Shown here: positions 20,791 to 33,152 of the stretch, in pieces
Numbering within the stretch: the first letter of the stretch is position 1
Layout: each line of letters starts with the position of its first letter
Virus genome (UHGV): UHGV-0189815
DNA length: 33,152 nt
From: a virus
Strand: one strand, 5' to 3'
Notes under the pieces: model-generated
What the model was told of the DNA's origin: nothing
Seen by the model: only the letters and a program-made list of their open reading frames with translations
Databases searched by the model: none
Translations under genes and position numbers: made by a program

Positions 20791-21093
20791 ATGTTAACAC
20801 CGCATGAAAAAAGCATTCTCACTTTGGCGGGGATTGGCGCATTAATTGCATTGGGTAAGGTGTTGAATACCGCTGAACCGATCACACTGCGTTTAATTAT
20901 TGGACGCGTAATTTTAGGCGCTGCGGTGTCGATGGTGGCCGGTGTTGCATTGATTCAGTTCCCTGATTTACACCCCGTTGCAATAAACGGTCTGGGGGCT
21001 GCTTTCGGTATTGCGGGCTATCAGGCGGTTGAACTATGGCTGCGTAATCGTGCGCAGTCCAGGAACGGGAGCAAGACAAATGACACTGAGTGA
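20791..21093 (+). CDS. Holin (putative)
   Basis: 100 aa with two to three hydrophobic helices and a charged C-terminus (RNRAQSRNGSKTNDTE); immediately upstream of, and overlapping, the endolysin gene. Confidence 0.6.
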   Translation: MLTPHEKSILTLAGIGALIALGKVLNTAEPITLRLIIGRVILGAAVSMVAGVALIQFPDLHPVAINGLGAAFGIAGYQAVELWLRNRAQSRNGSKTNDTE

Positions 21094-21418
21094 AAAGCAG
21101 CAGCGATTTACATCAATGATCGCTTTATTAATCCAGTACGCCAACGCGAATGGCTTTTGGCTGACATTTGGTGAAGCGTACCGCACGCCGGAACAGGCGG
21201 CACTGAATGCCAAAAAAGGCAGCGGCATTAAAAACAGTTTGCATACGCAGCGACTGGCCGTCGATTTTAATCTGTTTATCAAAGGCGAATATAAGACAGA
21301 CAGTCGTGATTACTTGCCGCTTGGGGAGTATTGGGAATCGCTCGGCGGGACGTGGGGCGGTCGTTTCAGTAAACCAGACGGAAATCATTTCAGTCTGGAA
21401 CACAACGGCGTTAAATAA
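21080..21418 (+). CDS. Endolysin, peptidase M15 (LAS-type zinc peptidase) family
   Basis: Zn-binding motifs H-x6-D (LHTQRLAVDF) and D-x2-H (PDGNHF); 112 aa from ATG 21080. Confidence 0.7.
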   Translation: MTLSEKQQRFTSMIALLIQYANANGFWLTFGEAYRTPEQAALNAKKGSGIKNSLHTQRLAVDFNLFIKGEYKTDSRDYLPLGEYWESLGGTWGGRFSKPDGNHFSLEHNGVK

Positions 21419-26292: not shown

Positions 26293-28227
26293 ATGGCAAC
26301 AATTATCACGACGGCGTTTGAGCAATGGCAAGCCGCTGATCTGCTGACGCCGGGCGACATTTCGCTGGATGAATTTGTTTTGGCTAATGTGCCCGGCCTT
26401 GATCCGGATGCGGTGATAAACCGTGACGCCGGTCTGCCGGATGCCGCGCAAATTGTTTACCGCGAATCCGTCAACGCTGCGGGCGTGGTTAATAAAAACA
26501 CGGTTGCGTACTCGTTTACCCTGGGAACAAACGTCGGCAATTTTTCGTTTAACTGGATCGGACTGATTTGCAAAAAAACGGGCCTTTTAGCGATGGTGAC
26601 AACGGTCCCGGCGCTGGAAAAGGTGAAAACGACGGCGACGGAACAGGGAAACGCGTTTACCCGCTCGTTTTTGATTGAATTTAACGGTGCTGCAGACAAG
26701 ACAGGGATTAATACACCTGCCGAAACGTGGCAGATCGATTTTACCGCCCGTCTGACGGGTATTGATGATTATCAGCGTTTACTGAATATCGATCATTACG
26801 GCAGTGCGCTGTTTTTTGATGATGGGTGGCTGGTTCAACGTAGCGGGGTGAAATATAACTGCCAGCCTGGGTTGGGTTATGTGGCCGGTTTGCGATTGGC
26901 GAACGAAGCCGCGCAGGATGTCGCGATCGGGACTAAACCCGCCGCCGTCTGGCTGGATACTGTCTGGCAGGGGTCTGTCATGACTGCCTGCGTGCCGGTC
27001 ACTGATATCTGCGTTATTACGTCGGGCGATCTGGCTGAATATTCGGACGCTGCGGGGAAAACCCACTACGTATTCAAAATCGCTGAAATTGCCGCAGACG
27101 GGGCGGTCACTGATTTACGGCCAGTGCGTAACAGTGACGATCTGGATAAGCGCTATTTACGCCGGTCGCTAAATCTGTCCGATCTGGATGATGTAGTGAA
27201 ATCCCGCGAAAATTTAAAACTGGGGAATTCTGCAACCCGTAACGTGGGAACGGCGGCGGGGACGGTAGCTGCCGGGGATGATTCGCGCATTGTTCACGCG
27301 GTGCAGGATACGCGCAAGGTGAACAATAAGGCACTGTCAGCAGACATTACGCTGACATACAGCGATGTAAACGCCGTGCCGACAACGCGCAAAGTGAACG
27401 ATAAGCCGCTGTCAGCGGACATCACGCTGACGTACAGCGACGTAAACGCTGTGCCGACAACGCGCAAGGTGAACAATAAGGCGCTGTCAGCAGACATCAC
27501 GCTGACGTACAGCGATGTAAACGCCGTTCCGACAACGCGCAAGGTTAACAATAAGGCGTTGTCAGCGGACATCACGCTGACGTACAGCGACGTAAATGCA
27601 GCTGCCGCAAGCCATAAGCACCCCTGGTCGGATATTACCGGCGCGCCGGACTTTATCACCGTAACAAATGCTGATGCGCGCTACTTAAATAAGTACGCAA
27701 TGTACACCGCGAATGGGTCATTTACTGTCCCTGCCGGTGTAAAAAAAATGTCGGTAGAGGTGCTCGGCGGTGGCGGCGGTGGCGGTGGCGGTGGTGCATA
27801 TTCTGGTGGTGGGGGTGGTGCGTCAAAACCGGTGACGACAATTGTCACCGTCACACCTGGCGCGGTCCTTTCTGTCGTTGTCGGAGGTGGGGGGGTAGGG
27901 GGAACCGTAGTCACGTCATCAGCAGGCAATATGACCAAGGGTAATTCGGGGACTGCTGGCGGCGCGTCTTCATTTTCGGGAGTGTCGTCACCCGGTGGTT
28001 CTGGTGGTTATGGTGGTACTACTGGCGGTACTGGTACTACAAAAGCCACTGCGGGCAATAATGGAGCGTCGTCAGTATATGGCGATGGTGGTTGCGGGGT
28101 TATCGGTGGTAGTCACAATGGCACCGGATACGGTGCGGGCGGGTCGGCTGGTGCTTATGGGACTTCTGGTGCGAACTGTTTCCCGGGCGGCAATGGGTCG
28201 CCGGGTTTTGTTAAATTGTCATGGTGA
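26293..28227 (+). CDS. Tail fibre protein with internal tandem repeats and Gly-rich C-terminal domain
   Basis: 644 aa; four 25-aa repeats (TRKVNNKALSADITLTYSDVNAVPT); runs of Gly (GGGGGGGGGG...GGGGG) and a G/S/T-rich C-terminus. Confidence 0.8.
   Translation: MATIITTAFEQWQAADLLTPGDISLDEFVLANVPGLDPDAVINRDAGLPDAAQIVYRESVNAAGVVNKNTVAYSFTLGTNVGNFSFNWIGLICKKTGLLAMVTTVPALEKVKTTATEQGNAFTRSFLIEFNGAADKTGINTPAETWQIDFTARLTGIDDYQRLLNIDHYGSALFFDDGWLVQRSGVKYNCQPGLGYVAGLRLANEAAQDVAIGTKPAAVWLDTVWQGSVMTACVPVTDICVITSGDLAEYSDAAGKTHYVFKIAEIAADGAVTDLRPVRNSDDLDKRYLRRSLNLSDLDDVVKSRENLKLGNSATRNVGTAAGTVAAGDDSRIVHAVQDTRKVNNKALSADITLTYSDVNAVPTTRKVNDKPLSADITLTYSDVNAVPTTRKVNNKALSADITLTYSDVNAVPTTRKVNNKALSADITLTYSDVNAAAASHKHPWSDITGAPDFITVTNADARYLNKYAMYTANGSFTVPAGVKKMSVEVLGGGGGGGGGGAYSGGGGGASKPVTTIVTVTPGAVLSVVVGGGGVGGTVVTSSAGNMTKGNSGTAGGASSFSGVSSPGGSGGYGGTTGGTGTTKATAGNNGASSVYGDGGCGVIGGSHNGTGYGAGGSAGAYGTSGANCFPGGNGSPGFVKLSW
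27310..27600. repeat. About 3.9 copies of a 75-bp near-perfect tandem repeat inside the tail-fibre gene
   Basis: Unit starts at 27310, 27385, 27460 and 27535, with few substitutions; coding, in frame. Confidence 0.9.
27765..27820. repeat. GGC/GGT simple-sequence tract (poly-Gly codons) in the tail-fibre gene
   Basis: ggcggtggcggcggtggcggtggcggtggt... read directly from the sequence. Confidence 0.7.
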
Positions 28228-28230
28228 TCA

Positions 28231-28833
28231 ATGAAATATGTATATTTTGATTCTGAATCAATGAAGGTCCTAGCATGGCTGGACACCGATCAGTTTGACA
28301 TTGTTCTGCCTGAAACGGTCATGCAATTAACGGATGTGCAGTGGCGTTACCGCGATCGTGATTGCTGGGTAAATCCCGCTGCTGGAAAGCTCGTAACAAC
28401 GCCGCCACCGGGCGAATATTATCGCCTGGACGGTGATAAATGGATTTATGACGCGGCAGCATTTGCCGCCGCGCTGAAGCAGATTAAAGCGCAGGTTGAA
28501 CAGGATATAAAAGCACATAGGGACGCCGTCACCGCCGATTACATCGTGATCGACGGGAATCGCTTCCATAGCGACGCTAACAGCCGCATTCAGCAGATGA
28601 CGCTGGCAAAAATGGGACAGGCGGGCGCGGTTCCGCCCGGTCTGATGTGGCAAACCAAAAATAACGGGCTGATTGAACTGACCAACGCAATCGCCGCACA
28701 GTTTGAGTTTGTGACCATTGAACACGATATGCGTTTGTTTGCCGTTGCGCAGGCGCATATTGCGGCAGTGGATGCCCTGGGCGATATTGCCGCCGTTGAG
28801 GCTTACGACTGGTCCCTGGGGTGGCAACCATGA
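28231..28833 (+). CDS. Tail fibre assembly/chaperone-like protein (putative)
   Basis: 200 aa, immediately downstream of and translationally coupled to the tail-fibre gene; by position. Confidence 0.5.
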   Translation: MKYVYFDSESMKVLAWLDTDQFDIVLPETVMQLTDVQWRYRDRDCWVNPAAGKLVTTPPPGEYYRLDGDKWIYDAAAFAAALKQIKAQVEQDIKAHRDAVTADYIVIDGNRFHSDANSRIQQMTLAKMGQAGAVPPGLMWQTKNNGLIELTNAIAAQFEFVTIEHDMRLFAVAQAHIAAVDALGDIAAVEAYDWSLGWQP

Positions 28834-29318
28834 ACGCGGTGTTTATTGCGTTTTATCGTGGCCGCAGCGATCACAACGGACTAGCCAGCCTGGCGGACTG
28901 GGTGACACGCCTTGTTACCCGCAGTCCGTATTCACATTGTGAAATCGCCGTGGGGCCGCAGTGCTACGACGTCGGCACGGATTTTACCTGCTATTCGTCA
29001 TCGTTCCGTGATGGCGGGGTCAGGGCTAAAACAATGCCTTTACCCTCTGACAAATGGGACTTGATCGAAATCAGCGCCAGCCCGCAGGAAATCGCCAGTT
29101 TTTACCGCCTGTACGCGGGGAAAAAATACGACATCGCCGGGGTTATCGGCTTTTTGCTGTTTTGCCGTGGGAATCCTGAAAAGTGGTTTTGTAGCGAGTT
29201 TTGTGCCGAATTTATGCAGTTACGGGATGCCTGGCGTTATTCGCCCGGCCAGTTACACGCGCTGGTTTCCAGCGAATGGGAGCGGGGTTATTCATGGCGT
29301 GGAGTAATGGACAGTTAA
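28830..29318 (+). CDS. Hypothetical late protein with His...Cys motif (possible permuted papain-like hydrolase)
   Basis: 163 aa from ATG 28830; YSHCEIAV upstream and KWFCSEFCAEF downstream, arranged His-before-Cys as in permuted NlpC/P60-like thiol hydrolases. Inference from motifs only. Confidence 0.45.
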   Translation: MNAVFIAFYRGRSDHNGLASLADWVTRLVTRSPYSHCEIAVGPQCYDVGTDFTCYSSSFRDGGVRAKTMPLPSDKWDLIEISASPQEIASFYRLYAGKKYDIAGVIGFLLFCRGNPEKWFCSEFCAEFMQLRDAWRYSPGQLHALVSSEWERGYSWRGVMDS

Positions 29319-30163
29319 AACTGCCGGATGAAGTGAAAACGCCGCATGACACGTTAAACGGTGCGTTGTCGTCGCTGTCATCCCCTGGCATTAACGCATT
29401 GCGCGCGCTGGAATCGCGGGCGCAGTGGCCGCAGCCAGAATTGGCGGGGCAGGCGGATCAGGTTGCCGATCTGCGCGTCGAACTGGATAAACTGACAACG
29501 AACGGGCAGCAAATCGCCGTTCATAACTGGACGTTTGGCGCGGGTAAGGAGGAAGAAAGCGGCACTTATCTTAGCCCGCCGAACGCCGTCAAACGGCTGG
29601 CCGAAAAATTGCGCGATGGTGCAGATCTGAGAATGGGCGCAGGCGGTGACGCCGTTTGTTTACTTGTTTGCGCTGGTCAGATTGGGGACTTCATTAGCAA
29701 GCTGACAAAAGTCTGTGACACCTTGCCCGCCCCCGGATTTACGCAGGCACTGAACACCGCCCGCGCTCACGCTGGCAAGGAATCCCAGAAAATGCAACGC
29801 CCCGGCGCGCTGACCTATCCGGCGTGGCCGGAGTCTGGCGACCTGATCGAAAAAAATCACCGTGAATCGCGCCGCCTGCTGTTGTCAGAAATGGCGATGC
29901 TGGCCGCACATAAAACCCGCGCGCCGGTCGATACATTGGCGGAACTGGTAAAGCTGCGTGAAAAGGCTGTTTCTGATCTGGCTGGTGACTTTGACAAGCT
30001 GAACGAAACCGCCGCGCAGGTCTGGTCCTGGAAGGGAAGCGGTGGCGGTGCGTCACTGGCGTCTGCGCTGGAATCCAGTAGCCCGCCCGGCCATTCTTTT
30101 ATTTTTACTGCTGTCGTGCTGTTCACTGGCGCGGATCTGTCGTTTTTGAAGGGCTGCATATGA
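29294..30163 (+). CDS. Hypothetical late protein
   Basis: 289 aa from ATG 29294 (overlaps the upstream gene); translationally coupled (ATGA) to the next gene; no recognisable motif. Confidence 0.45.
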   Translation: MAWSNGQLKLPDEVKTPHDTLNGALSSLSSPGINALRALESRAQWPQPELAGQADQVADLRVELDKLTTNGQQIAVHNWTFGAGKEEESGTYLSPPNAVKRLAEKLRDGADLRMGAGGDAVCLLVCAGQIGDFISKLTKVCDTLPAPGFTQALNTARAHAGKESQKMQRPGALTYPAWPESGDLIEKNHRESRRLLLSEMAMLAAHKTRAPVDTLAELVKLREKAVSDLAGDFDKLNETAAQVWSWKGSGGGASLASALESSSPPGHSFIFTAVVLFTGADLSFLKGCI

Positions 30164-30795
30164 GCACGAGACACCCAGTAATTTTAACGCTGAACGGCGA
30201 AACGGTAAAAATGCTGAATCTGAAAGTGGAGGCTGTTTTGCCGTTCAAAGACAAAGATCAGTCTGGCCAGACGTCGGGAACGCAGAAAAGTGAGGGCGGG
30301 ATAAAAGCAAAGGAATTAAACGTCAGCGGCGTGATCCCGTTTCGTAATGTTGAATTTCTTACGCGTATTTTTGAACTGGCGGAAGGGGTGGACGAGGGCG
30401 GAAAGCAGACGGTTTACCGCGTTTCTAATCTCACCGCCACGGCGATCAACATGCGCCAGGCGACATTCACCGGGCGTCTGAGCGCGCCGGAATCGGATTC
30501 ACTGCGGGCGTGGAACGTGTCGTTCACTCTGCGGGAGTACAGCAGTGTGCCGGAGAAAAAAGAGGCCAACGTATTTTCAAAACTGGGCGGGGTTGTTTCG
30601 CAGACAACGCCAGGTATTACGACGCCGGGTGCATCTTCTGGGGAAAATACACCGCCAGACACTGAAATGTCGTCATCAGATAAATTCTGGAAAAAAATTG
30701 ATGATTGGCTGGCCCCGTCGCCGTCTGAATCAAAAGCGGATACGACGTCAAACGGTACGGCCGGATCAGCTGTCAAAACGGACAAAGACAAATGA
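30160..30795 (+). CDS. Hypothetical tail/baseplate-associated protein
   Basis: 211 aa; ATGA-coupled at both ends; Ser/Thr/Pro-rich C-terminal third. Confidence 0.45.
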   Translation: MSTRHPVILTLNGETVKMLNLKVEAVLPFKDKDQSGQTSGTQKSEGGIKAKELNVSGVIPFRNVEFLTRIFELAEGVDEGGKQTVYRVSNLTATAINMRQATFTGRLSAPESDSLRAWNVSFTLREYSSVPEKKEANVFSKLGGVVSQTTPGITTPGASSGENTPPDTEMSSSDKFWKKIDDWLAPSPSESKADTTSNGTAGSAVKTDKDK

Positions 30796-32438
30796 AGATA
30801 ACAAGCCGTTTTTATATCGGTTCGCAGACGGTAACGCCGGTTAATGTACATCTGGCGCTGGAGTTGTCCGGCGCTGGGTTGGGTTTTGTCACGGTCCCCG
30901 GTGATGAAAACTTACAGGGAAAAATGGTCGCGCTGGATCTGGGGTATTCCGGAAAAATGCTGCGCTGGTTCACTGGTATTGTTGAGCGTAGTCAGCAGGC
31001 GGAAAAGGGCTGGCAGCGTATCCTGGTGCGTGAATTAACGGGAATACTGGCGCGCCCTATGCCCTGTTCAATACAGCACCCAACATTACGGGATGTCTGT
31101 AACTGGGTTACTGAACAGTGCGGGCTGGCGTTTGCGCTGCCAGACGGGCAGAAATACACCGATACGCCGATCCCTAACTTTACCCATTCAGGCAGCGGCT
31201 ATCAGTTGCTAAACAACCTGGGGCGCGCTTTTTCTATCCCGGATTATATCTGGCAGCAGTTGCCCGAAGGTGTTGTGTTTGTTGGTAGTTGGCAGGAATC
31301 CCGATGGCCGTCATTGCCCGTTGAGATACCGCCCGGATTTTCTGATCAGCAGACTGGCGGCGACACTATGCGGATCGTGTGCGTGCCGTCACTGCGGCCT
31401 GGCGCTGTCGTTAACGGCCAGCGGGTTAAGCGTATCGATCTGACTGATGACCAGATGTCAGTCAAATGGGCAGTAACAGACAACAAAGGCCGCGAGGCGC
31501 AAAAATCGCAATTCCGCCGCCAGGCTGAAAAGGAGTTTCCGGAACTGGCCGCAGGTTTACACCTGCCAAAAATTGGCCGCGTTGAGGCTATCAGCGACAC
31601 GACCGGCCATAGCGACATATCAGATCCATTCCGTCCGCGTTTTGCCGTCAATGTTCAGTTACTTGATGAAGACGGGAAACCAGATCAAACGGTCCCTGTT
31701 TATCAGGCTGTGCCGTTGCCGGTTGGGTTTGGCGGAAGCGATAGCGGCTTGATGCAGTACCCAGCGCCGGGAACACTGGTCGAACTGGGATTCAGTGAGG
31801 CACGCCCGGACCGCCCACACATCCGCCAGGTAATGGCGCAGGGGTTGACGCTGCCTGCTGTTGCTGCGGGTGAGCAGGTGCAGCAGTCGCGCGCGGGCGT
31901 TCTGCATAAGACAAACAGTCGCGGCGATGTCAGCCGCGAAACCGATCAGGCACTGACCGAAGTTGCGCGGGTGCGAAAGTTGACGGTGGATGAAGAACAG
32001 ACGGACGTCGCGGAGCGTCGCGCCAGCGTAACGGGTGATGATGTGTTACAGGTTGGCGGGTCGCATATCCTGCATACCCTGGGCGCTATTGAGCAGATGA
32101 CTGCAGGTGATATTGACACCGGAGCAGGAGGAGATCACCGGCACGCTGTCGGCGGGCAGTTGGTTGAAGTCGTCGGCAAGCTGCGGCGTAGCGTGGCTAA
32201 AGAATTGCAGCATTTTGAAGCCGGAAAGAGTTGGACCGGCACGGACGCAATAAATATTTTTGTGCTGTTGGATAACCTGATGATGGTTGTTCAACGGCTA
32301 GCAGCGGCTGACGCTGCGCACATCCATAACTGCCAGTGCGGCCCCAGTAGCCCACCTACAACCGCCGCATTGTTTACGGCTGAATCTGTCAATGCTGCAA
32401 CGCTACATGCGCAGCTATCCCCCATCATAGAACGCTAA
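30792..32438 (+). CDS. Baseplate hub/central spike protein with gpV/VgrG-like domain (putative)
   Basis: 548 aa; central segment RPRFAVNVQLLDEDGKPDQTVPVYQAVPLPVGFGGSDSGLMQYPAPGTLVELGFSEARPDRPHI resembles the gpV/VgrG spike OB-fold pattern; C-terminal HIHNCQCGP could be a metal-binding apex. Confidence 0.5.
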   Translation: MKITSRFYIGSQTVTPVNVHLALELSGAGLGFVTVPGDENLQGKMVALDLGYSGKMLRWFTGIVERSQQAEKGWQRILVRELTGILARPMPCSIQHPTLRDVCNWVTEQCGLAFALPDGQKYTDTPIPNFTHSGSGYQLLNNLGRAFSIPDYIWQQLPEGVVFVGSWQESRWPSLPVEIPPGFSDQQTGGDTMRIVCVPSLRPGAVVNGQRVKRIDLTDDQMSVKWAVTDNKGREAQKSQFRRQAEKEFPELAAGLHLPKIGRVEAISDTTGHSDISDPFRPRFAVNVQLLDEDGKPDQTVPVYQAVPLPVGFGGSDSGLMQYPAPGTLVELGFSEARPDRPHIRQVMAQGLTLPAVAAGEQVQQSRAGVLHKTNSRGDVSRETDQALTEVARVRKLTVDEEQTDVAERRASVTGDDVLQVGGSHILHTLGAIEQMTAGDIDTGAGGDHRHAVGGQLVEVVGKLRRSVAKELQHFEAGKSWTGTDAINIFVLLDNLMMVVQRLAAADAAHIHNCQCGPSSPPTTAALFTAESVNAATLHAQLSPIIER

Positions 32439-32450
32439 TCCCTTCTCATT

Positions 32451-32473
32451 GCCCGCCTGCGCGGGCTTTTTTA
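32451..32473 (+). terminator. Rho-independent terminator at the end of the late operon
   Basis: Hairpin gcccgc-ctgc-gcgggc followed by tttttt, 13 nt after the stop of the 548-aa gene. Confidence 0.7.
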
Positions 32474-32936
32474 CGTCCTCATTCCGGCAAACACGGTCAT
32501 TTATGGCGGTCCTGCAGGTCTGGCGGTGCTCGATACACGGCGCGCGGTCAAAATCTGAACACCGGAACGCCAGCGGGACGAAAACCGCGCTCACCCGCAC
32601 GCCCGCCGCTTGTGCGTGGTTAAAGTTTTTTCAGTTCTGGATATTGCAATAAAGGGCCGCAAAAGCCCGCGCAGCAAGGATCTAAAAAGGATCTGCGGAA
32701 CTGAAAAAATTACGTGCTTTTTCAGTTAATTGAAAACAGAAAGATCACGAATGTGATCGGCCTGTTTTTATTACATTGAAAATAAAAGAAAAAATTATTT
32801 TACGTGAAGGCTTGAGGGTGAGGGAATGCTTGAGAGATTTTAAAAATTACAATAAAAACATATAGTTAGTTAAATATGAAACTGAAATTTACGCTTTGGT
32901 CTTGAGAAAGGCCGTCGACTATGGCGGCCTTAGGCA

Positions 32937-33152
32937 TTACTTGTGTGGCGGGTAGTCAATACCGCCATTCGGTGGACGGCAACGATAAATCCGCTTTAAA
33001 CCTAGTTTCCACCCCTTTACGAATCCAAAACGCTTTAATGCAATCAGTGTGTATTTTGAACAAGATGGGGTGTGACGACATCTGTTACGAATATTCATTG
33101 GCGCATGTGCTCGGTAGAACAACACAAGGCGAATACTCAAGACTTTTAACAT
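32937..33152 (-). CDS. YidD-family protein (membrane protein insertion efficiency factor-like)
   Basis: 71 aa; CRHTPSCSKYTLIALKRFGFVKGWKLGLKRIYRCRPPNGGIDYPP matches the YidD signature (CRFTPTCS.Y..EAL...G..KG..L...R...C.P...GG.D.VP) as I recall it; lies in an AT-rich region; start codon at the window edge. Confidence 0.6.
   Translation of the reverse strand: MLKVLSIRLVLFYRAHAPMNIRNRCRHTPSCSKYTLIALKRFGFVKGWKLGLKRIYRCRPPNGGIDYPPHK

Follow-up and report, generated by a model that had tools for sequence, protein, structure and literature searches.

The window analyzed here, the 33,152-nucleotide virus genome UHGV-0189815, is an HP1-type (Peduoviridae, P2-like) prophage integrated in Escherichia coli, and its late operon probably ends in a fixed three-gene baseplate-center module, accompanied by one optional enzyme gene that has been inserted ahead of it. 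The four genes lie on the plus strand and are numbered here in the order of transcription. Gene 1 (28830..29318, 162 residues) encodes an accessory, putative permuted NlpC/P60 (YaeF/YiiX-like) Cys-His enzyme. Gene 2 (29294..30163, 289 residues) is a homolog of HP1 orf33 that belongs to phrog_1677, as identified by BLASTP, PHROG and synteny. Gene 3 (30160..30795, 211 residues) encodes a baseplate complex protein of the HP1 ORF34 family, identified by Pfam PF25759, BLASTP and synteny. Gene 4 (30792..32438, 548 residues) is the homolog of HP1 orf35 and, by its predicted structure, is one polypeptide in which a hub domain of the gp27/gpD/Mu gp44 type is followed by an OB-fold spike of the gp5/gpV type.

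We built an AlphaFold model of the gene 4 monomer from a 39-sequence alignment. Residues 1–230 (30792..31481, plus strand) are modeled with a predicted local distance difference test (pLDDT) score of ~90 and adopt the baseplate hub fold seen in Mu gp44, P2 gpD, T4 gp27 and the N-terminal part of VgrG. Residues ~255–480 (31554..32231, plus strand) comprise a gp5/gpV/VgrG-type OB-fold (~255–350), modeled at moderate confidence, and then a probable triple-stranded β-helix. The model is disordered over residues 351–480, as expected when a single chain of an intertwined trimer is predicted as a monomer. In the structural comparison, gene 4 scored 19.5 against the MuSo2 43 kDa tail protein (3cdd), 17.9 against Mu gp44, 17.2 against the E217 hub, 16.7 against the E. 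coli c3393 VgrG, 15.6 against the R2 pyocin hub, and ~18 against the single-chain spikes of extracellular contractile injection systems (eCIS), with 250–280 residues aligned; the scores for the spike proteins Mu gp45 and P2 gpV were 8.8 and 6.9, respectively. The same chain thus carries both an N-terminal hub fold of the gp27/gpD/Mu gp44 type and an OB-fold of the gp5/gpV type.

Sequence comparisons point to the spike half of the protein. The gene 4 family profile matches a VgrG with an E-value of 3.9e-5 across the OB-fold and the β-helix, and there are weak profile matches to β-helix fragments of T4 gp5 (E-values 0.003–0.03). In the single sequence, PAPGTLVELGFSEARPDRPHI aligns with the OB-fold motif of VgrG1. 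The gpV-like HTHPGDSGGTTG is present in homologs, and some homologs are named ‘Gp5/Type VI secretion system Vgr protein OB-fold domain-containing protein’ in UniRef. A preliminary description of this region, made from the sequence alone, had recognized a spike resembling VgrG/gpV and, within it, an OB-fold segment. The VgrG profile and the VgrG1 motif alignment bear this out, but the word ‘spike’ is incomplete, because the first ~230 residues are a full hub domain and the protein is best described as a fused hub-spike.

Some results weigh against this assignment. Neither Pfam, searched at an E-value of 0.1, nor NCBIfam returned a hub or spike model for gene 4 (Phage_GPD, Phage_base_V, T6SS_Vgr), hhalign of the gene 4 profile against the single sequences of P2 gpD and gpV was not significant, and residues 351–480 are modeled at low confidence. 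Since no Pfam or NCBIfam model matches, membership of gene 4 in the hub/spike family is structural and does not derive from a curated profile. The missing Pfam hub model and the non-significant alignment with the single gpD sequence are also what favors taking gene 4 for a spike only, with the hub supplied by gene 2 or gene 3 and the N-terminal likeness an artifact of modeling, which, next to the comparisons above, we consider hardly credible.

The predicted tip of the spike is of the P2 type. His510-Ile-His512 (32319..32327, plus strand) corresponds to the HxH of a gpV-type apex, which is predicted to form a metal cage in the trimer, and it is followed by the non-conserved Cys514 and Cys516 (32331-32339, plus strand). 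Residues A508, H510 and H512 are invariant in the 39-sequence alignment, whereas both Cys occur in the three closest relatives only. At the aligned apex, the homologs P0124, P0129 and P0130 read HTHPGDSGGTTGKP, compared with HKHPGDSGGTTGSP in P2 gpV, whose C-terminal end reads ...HKHPGDSGGTTGSPL. In P2, His197 and His199 from three chains form an octahedral Fe cage, and an HxH close to the C-terminal end is accepted as the mark of an Apex domain (bioRxiv 10.1101/2023.02.25.529910). Because the HxH is invariant, the Cys are not, and the equivalent His of P2 form the Fe cage, we assign the tip of gene 4 to the gpV-type HxH apex and not to a His/Cys site. A PAAR-type His/Cys zinc site was also considered for the apex and was rejected, as the Cys are not conserved. 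It had been proposed that the protein ends in a metal-coordinating His/Cys tip, HIHNCQCGP. The motif is present and is of the apex metal-cage type, but it occupies residues 510–518 with 30 more residues to the C-terminus, and its conserved part is HxH, not His/Cys.

Other features argue against a strictly P2-like apex. Helices are predicted at residues 489–509 and 525–545, flanking the HxH, with pLDDT values of 76–86, so the segment before the motif is predicted to be helical rather than β. In addition, 36 residues follow H512, compared with 12 in gpV, which places the motif short of the extreme C-terminus. The geometry of the tip may therefore differ from that of P2. The P2 apex has been reported to be dispensable in the laboratory (bioRxiv 10.1101/2023.02.25.529910), which tempers the functional weight that can be given to the HxH motif. 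We envisage that the gene 4 trimer would plug the end of the tail tube and that sheath contraction would drive it through the outer membrane, with six histidines of the trimer holding a metal ion at the tip, by analogy with P2 gpV.

This arrangement can be set against better-known contractile systems. In P2, the hub gpD and the spike gpV, which carries the Fe-loaded Apex, are two proteins, as are Mu gp44 and gp45 and the R2 pyocin PA0628 and PA0616; here they are one chain. Gene 4 also sits at the operon end, whereas the hub and spike genes of a P2-type layout are split before W and after T/U. Fused hub-spikes are found in VgrG of type VI secretion systems (T6SSs) and in the eCIS spikes of the Afp8/Pvc8 type. 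Unlike these, gene 4 has its own HxH apex and no separate PAAR tip protein, is encoded by a true temperate phage, and, at 548 residues, is shorter than most VgrG/Afp8/Pvc8-type spikes.

The DNA encoding the hub domain is also a target of the host. A 32-nucleotide (nt) spacer of E. coli WP8-S18-CRE-02, located in a type I-E array of clustered regularly interspaced short palindromic repeats (CRISPR) by cas1e/cas2e and iap, matches positions 31008-31039 exactly, with the canonical AAG protospacer-adjacent motif at 31005-31007. Some 20 further complete E. coli genomes contain the same 51-nt match, annotated as CRISPR. The exact spacer and its adjacent motif indicate that this rare prophage family has been targeted by the adaptive immunity of E. 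coli.

Gene 4 does not stand alone. Judged by sequence, genes 2, 3 and 4 are the homologs of HP1 orf33, orf34 and orf35: BLASTP gave 33% identity for gene 2 (E-value 1e-33), 41% for gene 3 (8e-37) and 40% for gene 4 (1e-147), and gene 2 also matched gp44 of the Aeromonas phage phiO18P (2e-26). In HP1 and phiO18P, the fiber-assembly gene is followed by exactly three genes, with which the late operon ends, and the HP1 trio, like phiO18P gp44-46 and kp44/45 of Vibrio phage Kappa, resembles genes 2–4 in order, operon-end position and sizes. HP1 orf35 likewise retains the HxH, as THTH, while the two Cys of the apex described above are missing from HP1 and most relatives. Synteny was counted at 80 IMG/VR loci with relatives of gene 4, each taken together with 6 kb of flanking sequence. 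Homologs of genes 2 and 3 lie directly upstream of the gene 4 homolog, in the same order, at every one of these loci; the gene 4 homolog is complete in 79, and the remaining contig stops within it.

Gene 1 behaves differently. It is present in 3 of the 80 HP1-type relatives and is missing from HP1 and phiO18P, so that, in contrast to HP1, the prophage in the window has an additional gene between the fiber-assembly gene and the orf33 homolog. As gene 1 is accessory, the slot after the fiber-assembly gene is a variable site, whereas the triad kept in 80 of 80 loci is core and not cargo. The earlier suggestion that this interval is a variable cargo slot, as in P2, in which any of the four genes might be non-structural, consequently holds for gene 1 and fails for genes 2–4, which form a universal module. 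A literature search on HP1 orf33-35 or the Hpunavirus baseplate returned no paper assigning these genes, and none of the four proteins matched an NCBIfam family.

The two middle genes, described at first as free of recognizable motifs, do in fact belong to families: gene 3 to PF25759 and gene 2 to that of HP1 orf33. Gene 3 matches PF25759 (‘Bacteriophage HP1 ORF34 baseplate complex protein’) with an E-value of 2.9e-53 and a score of 180.6 bits, where the Pfam gathering threshold is 27; the match covers model positions 3–175 of 180, and all 26 aligned relatives match the family as well. The gene 3 alignment shows a conserved N-terminal domain of ~135 residues with a Ser/Thr/Gln-rich insertion, then a variable low-complexity linker, and finally a short conserved C-terminal segment. 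Gene 2 matches phrog_1677 with an E-value of 7e-60, and in its alignment few positions are invariant and one stretch is probably a coiled coil. A protein search with gene 2 returned seven close relatives, none of them named; no Pfam, NCBIfam or PDB match was obtained for it, and no relative was detected outside its own family.

Assigning roles to these two proteins is less direct. Single-sequence PDB searches with genes 1–3 gave chance-level matches only, profile searches with genes 2 and 3 matched no solved chain, and a Pfam scan of every member of the two alignments yielded nothing beyond PF25759. Profile matches of genes 2 and 3 to haemagglutinin HA2 in the PDB (E-value ~0.3) were dismissed as coiled-coil noise. 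The gene 3 profile did not align significantly with P2 gpU by hhalign; the 80 gpU loci returned from IMG/VR were all 98–100% identical to P2. That the two profiles match nothing in the PDB, nor in Pfam outside their own family, counts against a firm functional assignment, and for this reason the roles proposed here rest on synteny and exclusion. A contractile tail requires a tube-to-hub adaptor. No hub, spike or initiator was found among the remaining tail-module genes, from gpL through the fiber, and homologs of gpU, gpD, gpV and gpX are absent from the rest of the tail module of this genome. From these two considerations we infer that genes 2 and 3 are hub-proximal parts that would jointly supply the tube-to-hub adaptor or initiator and a hub-binding or assembly protein. 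Gene 2 would be a hub-associated baseplate or assembly protein, the conserved partner of the hub-spike, and gene 3, by exclusion only, the tube-to-hub adaptor or tube initiator.

The optional gene 1 encodes a putative circularly permuted enzyme of the NlpC/P60 superfamily, closest to YaeF/YiiX, with a predicted His36/Cys121 dyad. The structural model (pLDDT 87) has a papain-like core of the NlpC/P60 fold in which the His precedes the Cys in sequence, as the circular permutation requires. The motifs YSHCEIAV (residues 34–41) and WFCSEFC (residues 119–125) contain His36 (28935-28937) and Cys121 (29190-29192), and the conserved Tyr100 (29127-29129) lies between them, all on the plus strand. A profile of 46 gene 1 homologs matches the Bacillus cereus protein BcPPNE (3kw0) with an E-value of 0.009, aligning Ser35-His36 with Ser48-His49 and Phe-Cys121-Ser-Glu with Ile-Cys154-Ser-Glu. 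His49 and Cys154 are the catalytic pair described by Xu et al. (PMC3142127), who also found that the active site binds an amino acid and that Ser48, His49 and Asp68 contact a bound lysine; gene 1 residues S35, H36 and D61 align with these three. A match in BFVD is named for the YaeF/YiiX C92 family. The preliminary description had read the His-then-Cys arrangement as a permuted papain-like hydrolase, which the fold and the 3kw0 match support. Among the families it had put forward for comparison, NlpC/P60 was recovered for gene 1, with YaeF/YiiX rather than LRAT closest, while the hhalign comparisons with gpU and gpD were those reported above as not significant.

Conservation was assessed in 80 sequences of the gene 1 family. 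Residues Y100, D61, R65, K67 and W76 do not vary, and the patterns used for the search did not include any of these positions. The conservation of H36 and C121 in this set is partly a matter of ascertainment, because the loci were found with the patterns YSHCEIA and FCSE, but both residues are also invariant in the independent set of 46 sequences. Y100 may correspond to the tyrosine that precedes the Cys as oxyanion-hole equivalent in YaeF/YiiX-like enzymes; its spacing to the Cys is 21 residues, compared with 13 in YiiX and 27 in BcPPNE. Two results speak against a straightforward assignment to the YaeF/YiiX family. First, the acidic third residue of the triad, Glu64 of BcPPNE/YiiX, is replaced by Ser57, and this position is Ser in 38 of the 80 sequences and Ala in the other 42; the invariant Glu38 might stand in for it. 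Second, gene 1 falls below the Pfam threshold for Peptidase_C92 (PF05708), with no Pfam match for the protein of the window, and 1 of the 46 relatives touches this family (E-value 0.09). With the triad residue replaced and Peptidase_C92 not reached, we regard the gene 1 family as a diverged relative and not as a profile-level member.

Gene 1 shares with E. coli YiiX (2if6) and BcPPNE the permuted fold, the His-before-Cys order, the CSE motif at a helix N-terminus, the Ser-His...Asp that lines the BcPPNE amino-acid site, and possibly the conserved Tyr. It differs from them in being smaller (~150–165 residues in the family), phage-borne and tied to a fiber-assembly gene, and in Glu38, two residues past the His, which is invariant in the gene 1 family and specific to it. 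Structural similarity to Tox-Act1 and TseH, the T6SS-delivered permuted NlpC/P60 phospholipases, is far below that to YiiX. Unlike in those systems, no immunity gene is evident beside gene 1, which is not fused to the spike and is separated from it by genes 2 and 3.

The family has been known under another name. In phrog_1128, SuMu gp51, Pm86 ORF70 and Ralstonia phage RP12, it is labeled ‘enoyl-CoA hydratase/carnithine racemase-like’. We rejected this identity, as no enoyl-CoA hydratase Pfam model matches at an E-value of 0.1 and the fold is NlpC/P60, and the label appears to be a propagated misannotation. The phrog_1128 profile has 381 positions, of which gene 1 spans 22–177 only; an additional domain may therefore be present in some members.

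The genomic context of gene 1 homologs links them to fiber assembly. The family has more than 500 IMG/VR matches, and homologs occur in the Mu-like phage SuMu, Pasteurella phage Pm86, Moraxella Mcat phages, Ralstonia jumbo phages and a P2-like Neisseria prophage, where the gene lies between a DUF4376 gene and the sheath gene. The fiber-assembly/gene 1 arrangement is shared by the Neisseria prophage, SuMu, Pm86 and the Moraxella phages. We retrieved 79 IMG/VR phage contigs carrying a gene 1 homolog by means of the YSHCEIA and FCSE patterns. At 76 of these loci, a same-strand open reading frame ends −10 to +21 nt from the start of the homolog (nearly all; two at ~−70). In 70 of the 76 cases the upstream frame falls into a single BLAST cluster, which has DUF4376/Caudo_TAP proteins among its members. 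Of seven members sampled, five match Pfam DUF4376, two of them also Caudo_TAP, and DUF4376 proteins have been described as tail-fiber chaperones (PMC10579305). The downstream neighbors, by contrast, fall into 23 unrelated clusters. From these alignments and gene borders, gene 1 is taken to be translationally coupled to the fiber-assembly gene, and the pair to move as a cassette among unrelated phages. One homolog, with 54% identity to gene 1, goes against this pattern: it is free-standing on the chromosome of Candidatus Tokpelaia, outside any phage context. This copy (L094/L095 4001-4444) is flanked by genes for an electron-transfer flavoprotein and a FAD-monooxygenase, with no phage genes within 4 kb, and is the sole non-phage context seen.

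What gene 1 does can be proposed with lower confidence than the architecture of the module. Gene 1 is not part of the hub module and would be made late in the cytoplasm, together with the fiber and its chaperone. By analogy with its relatives, it would hydrolyze or transfer an acyl group on a lipid-type substrate, located in the host envelope at the fiber tip or at lysis, or in a component of the phage fiber. This acyl hydrolase/transferase reading follows from the characterized permuted NlpC/P60 enzymes, which act on acyl chains and not on peptidoglycan (PMC3142127, PMC12994826). The S1 pocket of the permuted branch is hydrophobic, YiiX has been seen with a bound fatty acid, Tox-Act1 and TseH are phospholipases, and LRAT/PLAAT belong to the same branch (PMC3142127, PMC12994826). 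Of the two activities first suggested for gene 1, a cell-wall or a lipid hydrolase, the lipid or acyl substrate is accordingly the likelier in view of the nearest structural relatives.

A broader proposal is possible but tentative: the fiber-assembly protein, often one with a DUF4376 domain, and the YiiX-like enzyme may constitute a conserved two-gene cassette that moves between P2-, Mu- and HP1-like myophages and siphophages, with the enzyme a hitherto unrecognized tail-fiber-linked acyl hydrolase or acyltransferase that acts on outer-membrane lipid, lipoprotein or lipopolysaccharide (LPS), or on the fiber or its chaperone. The enzyme would then ride with the chaperone at the fiber tip and deacylate outer-membrane lipid, lipoprotein or LPS; alternatively, it would acylate or process the fiber or chaperone during assembly.

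An unlikely explanation is that gene 1 is a moron, a lysogenic-conversion gene or a piece of defense cargo comparable to P2 fun(Z), acting in the lysogen and unrelated to the tail. Its accessory distribution, the free-standing Tokpelaia homolog, the location of the gene in what is the fun(Z) slot of P2, and the PHROGs category of the family (‘moron, auxiliary metabolic gene and host takeover’) all agree with such a role. Yet fun(Z) lies on the opposite strand behind a terminator, whereas gene 1 lacks its own promoter-like site and terminator and overlaps both neighbors on the late-operon strand, and the coupling to the upstream fiber-assembly gene is kept across phage lineages (76 of the 79 loci). 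PADLOC found no defense-system match for gene 1, which leaves the defense-cargo version without support.

The canonical function of NlpC/P60 proteins is peptidoglycan or peptide hydrolysis. Gene 1 could on that basis be a lysin carried by the virion to attack the cell wall, or a protease for maturing the fiber or removing its chaperone, and we regard this as quite improbable. The papain-like Cys-His fold, the name ‘cysteine peptidase’ given to 3kw0 by its depositors, the amino-acid site of BcPPNE with its aligned S35, H36 and D61, and the genetic linkage to the fiber chaperone are in keeping with a peptide substrate; the hydrophobic S1 pocket of the permuted branch and the acyl-chain substrates of its characterized members are not. 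Moreover, the phage already has an M15 endolysin and its spike is without a lysin domain, so no requirement for a further lysin is evident.

The preliminary description had drawn four overlapping genes on one strand running to a terminator, and this layout is confirmed by the open reading frames, the RefSeq coding sequences and a GC hairpin with a T-run. Upstream of gene 1 lies the tail-fiber assembly-type gene (28231..28833, plus strand), with a DUF4376 domain (Pfam E-value 3.4e-12) and matches to tail fiber and tail protein families in PHROG. Its stop codon (28831-28833) overlaps the ATG of gene 1 (28830) as ATGA; genes 1 and 2 share 25 nt, gene 2 starting at the ATG at 29294; and genes 2/3 (30160-30163) and 3/4 (30792-30795) overlap by 4 nt each. 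No promoter-like sites were found at the junctions of the four genes. The intrinsic terminator-like element (32451..32476, plus strand), a hairpin of six G-C pairs and a 4-nt loop, reads GCCCGCCTGCGCGGGC then TTTTTTACGT; the hairpin (32451-32466), followed by TTTTTT, starts 12 nt past the gene 4 stop and closes the late operon. The portal and terminase genes are on the minus strand. On the plus strand, the late genes run in the order scaffold, capsid, small terminase, gpL, gpR, gpS, sheath (DUF2586), tube (HP1 Orf24 family), holin, M15 endolysin, tail assembly chaperone, tape measure, DUF2590, baseplate J, baseplate I, fiber and the DUF4376 gene.

The 4.4 kb around the four genes are 99.9% identical to a prophage adjoining yeaE in E. 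coli 40EC, whose RefSeq annotation places the four coding sequences identically and names every product ‘hypothetical’. Near-full-length copies of this region occur in only 7 of 5426 complete E. coli genomes, and megablast against 50,697 phage records gave no match; the element is known solely as a prophage.

Several other features of the window were recorded. The tail fiber gene (26293-28227) contains a 75-nt (25-residue) tandem repeat in its shaft, present in 3.8 copies at 27310-27596, and the fiber gene of 40EC is 75 nt longer (2010 versus 1935 nt), which fits one additional repeat unit. The C-terminus of the fiber (27700-28227) is a glycine-rich domain (Pfam Gly_rich_2, E-value 9e-9) with ~10 consecutive Gly, an unusual receptor-binding tip for a P2-like fiber. 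The lysis cassette (20791-21418) consists of the holin and the small M15 peptidase endolysin; RefSeq annotates no Rz/Rz1-type spanin in it, an embedded or unannotated spanin not having been searched for, and HP1 has the Rz-like orf25. A perfect 16-nt palindrome, GATCACGAATGTGATC (32743-32758), lies in the AT-rich DNA that separates the operon terminator from a yidD-like gene, and might be a protein-binding site close to the prophage end or cos region. The yidD-like gene itself (32937-33152, minus strand; in RefSeq, membrane protein insertion efficiency factor YidD) runs past the end of the window and may be a second yidD-like copy at the prophage end. In strain 40EC, the interval from the operon terminator to the chromosomal yeaE contains another small hypothetical gene besides this one.

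Prophages of the HP1 type are common in Pasteurellaceae, Vibrio, Aeromonas and enterobacteria. The HP1 orf33-35 family, the VgrG and gpD-plus-gpV architectures and the YaeF/YiiX-like enzymes are all of known kinds. In this analysis, orf35 is a single-chain hub and spike with a P2-type HxH apex, always accompanied by orf33 and orf34. This gives a parts list usable for annotation and structural work on the HP1-type baseplate center, and it documents a temperate phage with the fused VgrG/Afp8-type arrangement. The gene 1 family, in turn, is renamed from ‘enoyl-CoA hydratase’ to a permuted NlpC/P60 family coupled to tail-fiber assembly genes, and the conserved fiber-assembly/enzyme cassette is one loose end that deserves experiment. 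Should gene 1 act on envelope lipids, it would bear on host recognition and on the engineering of fibers and tailocins; and if fiber-assembly protein and enzyme do work together as a cassette, a lipid-directed activity would join the known repertoire of phage receptor-binding modules.

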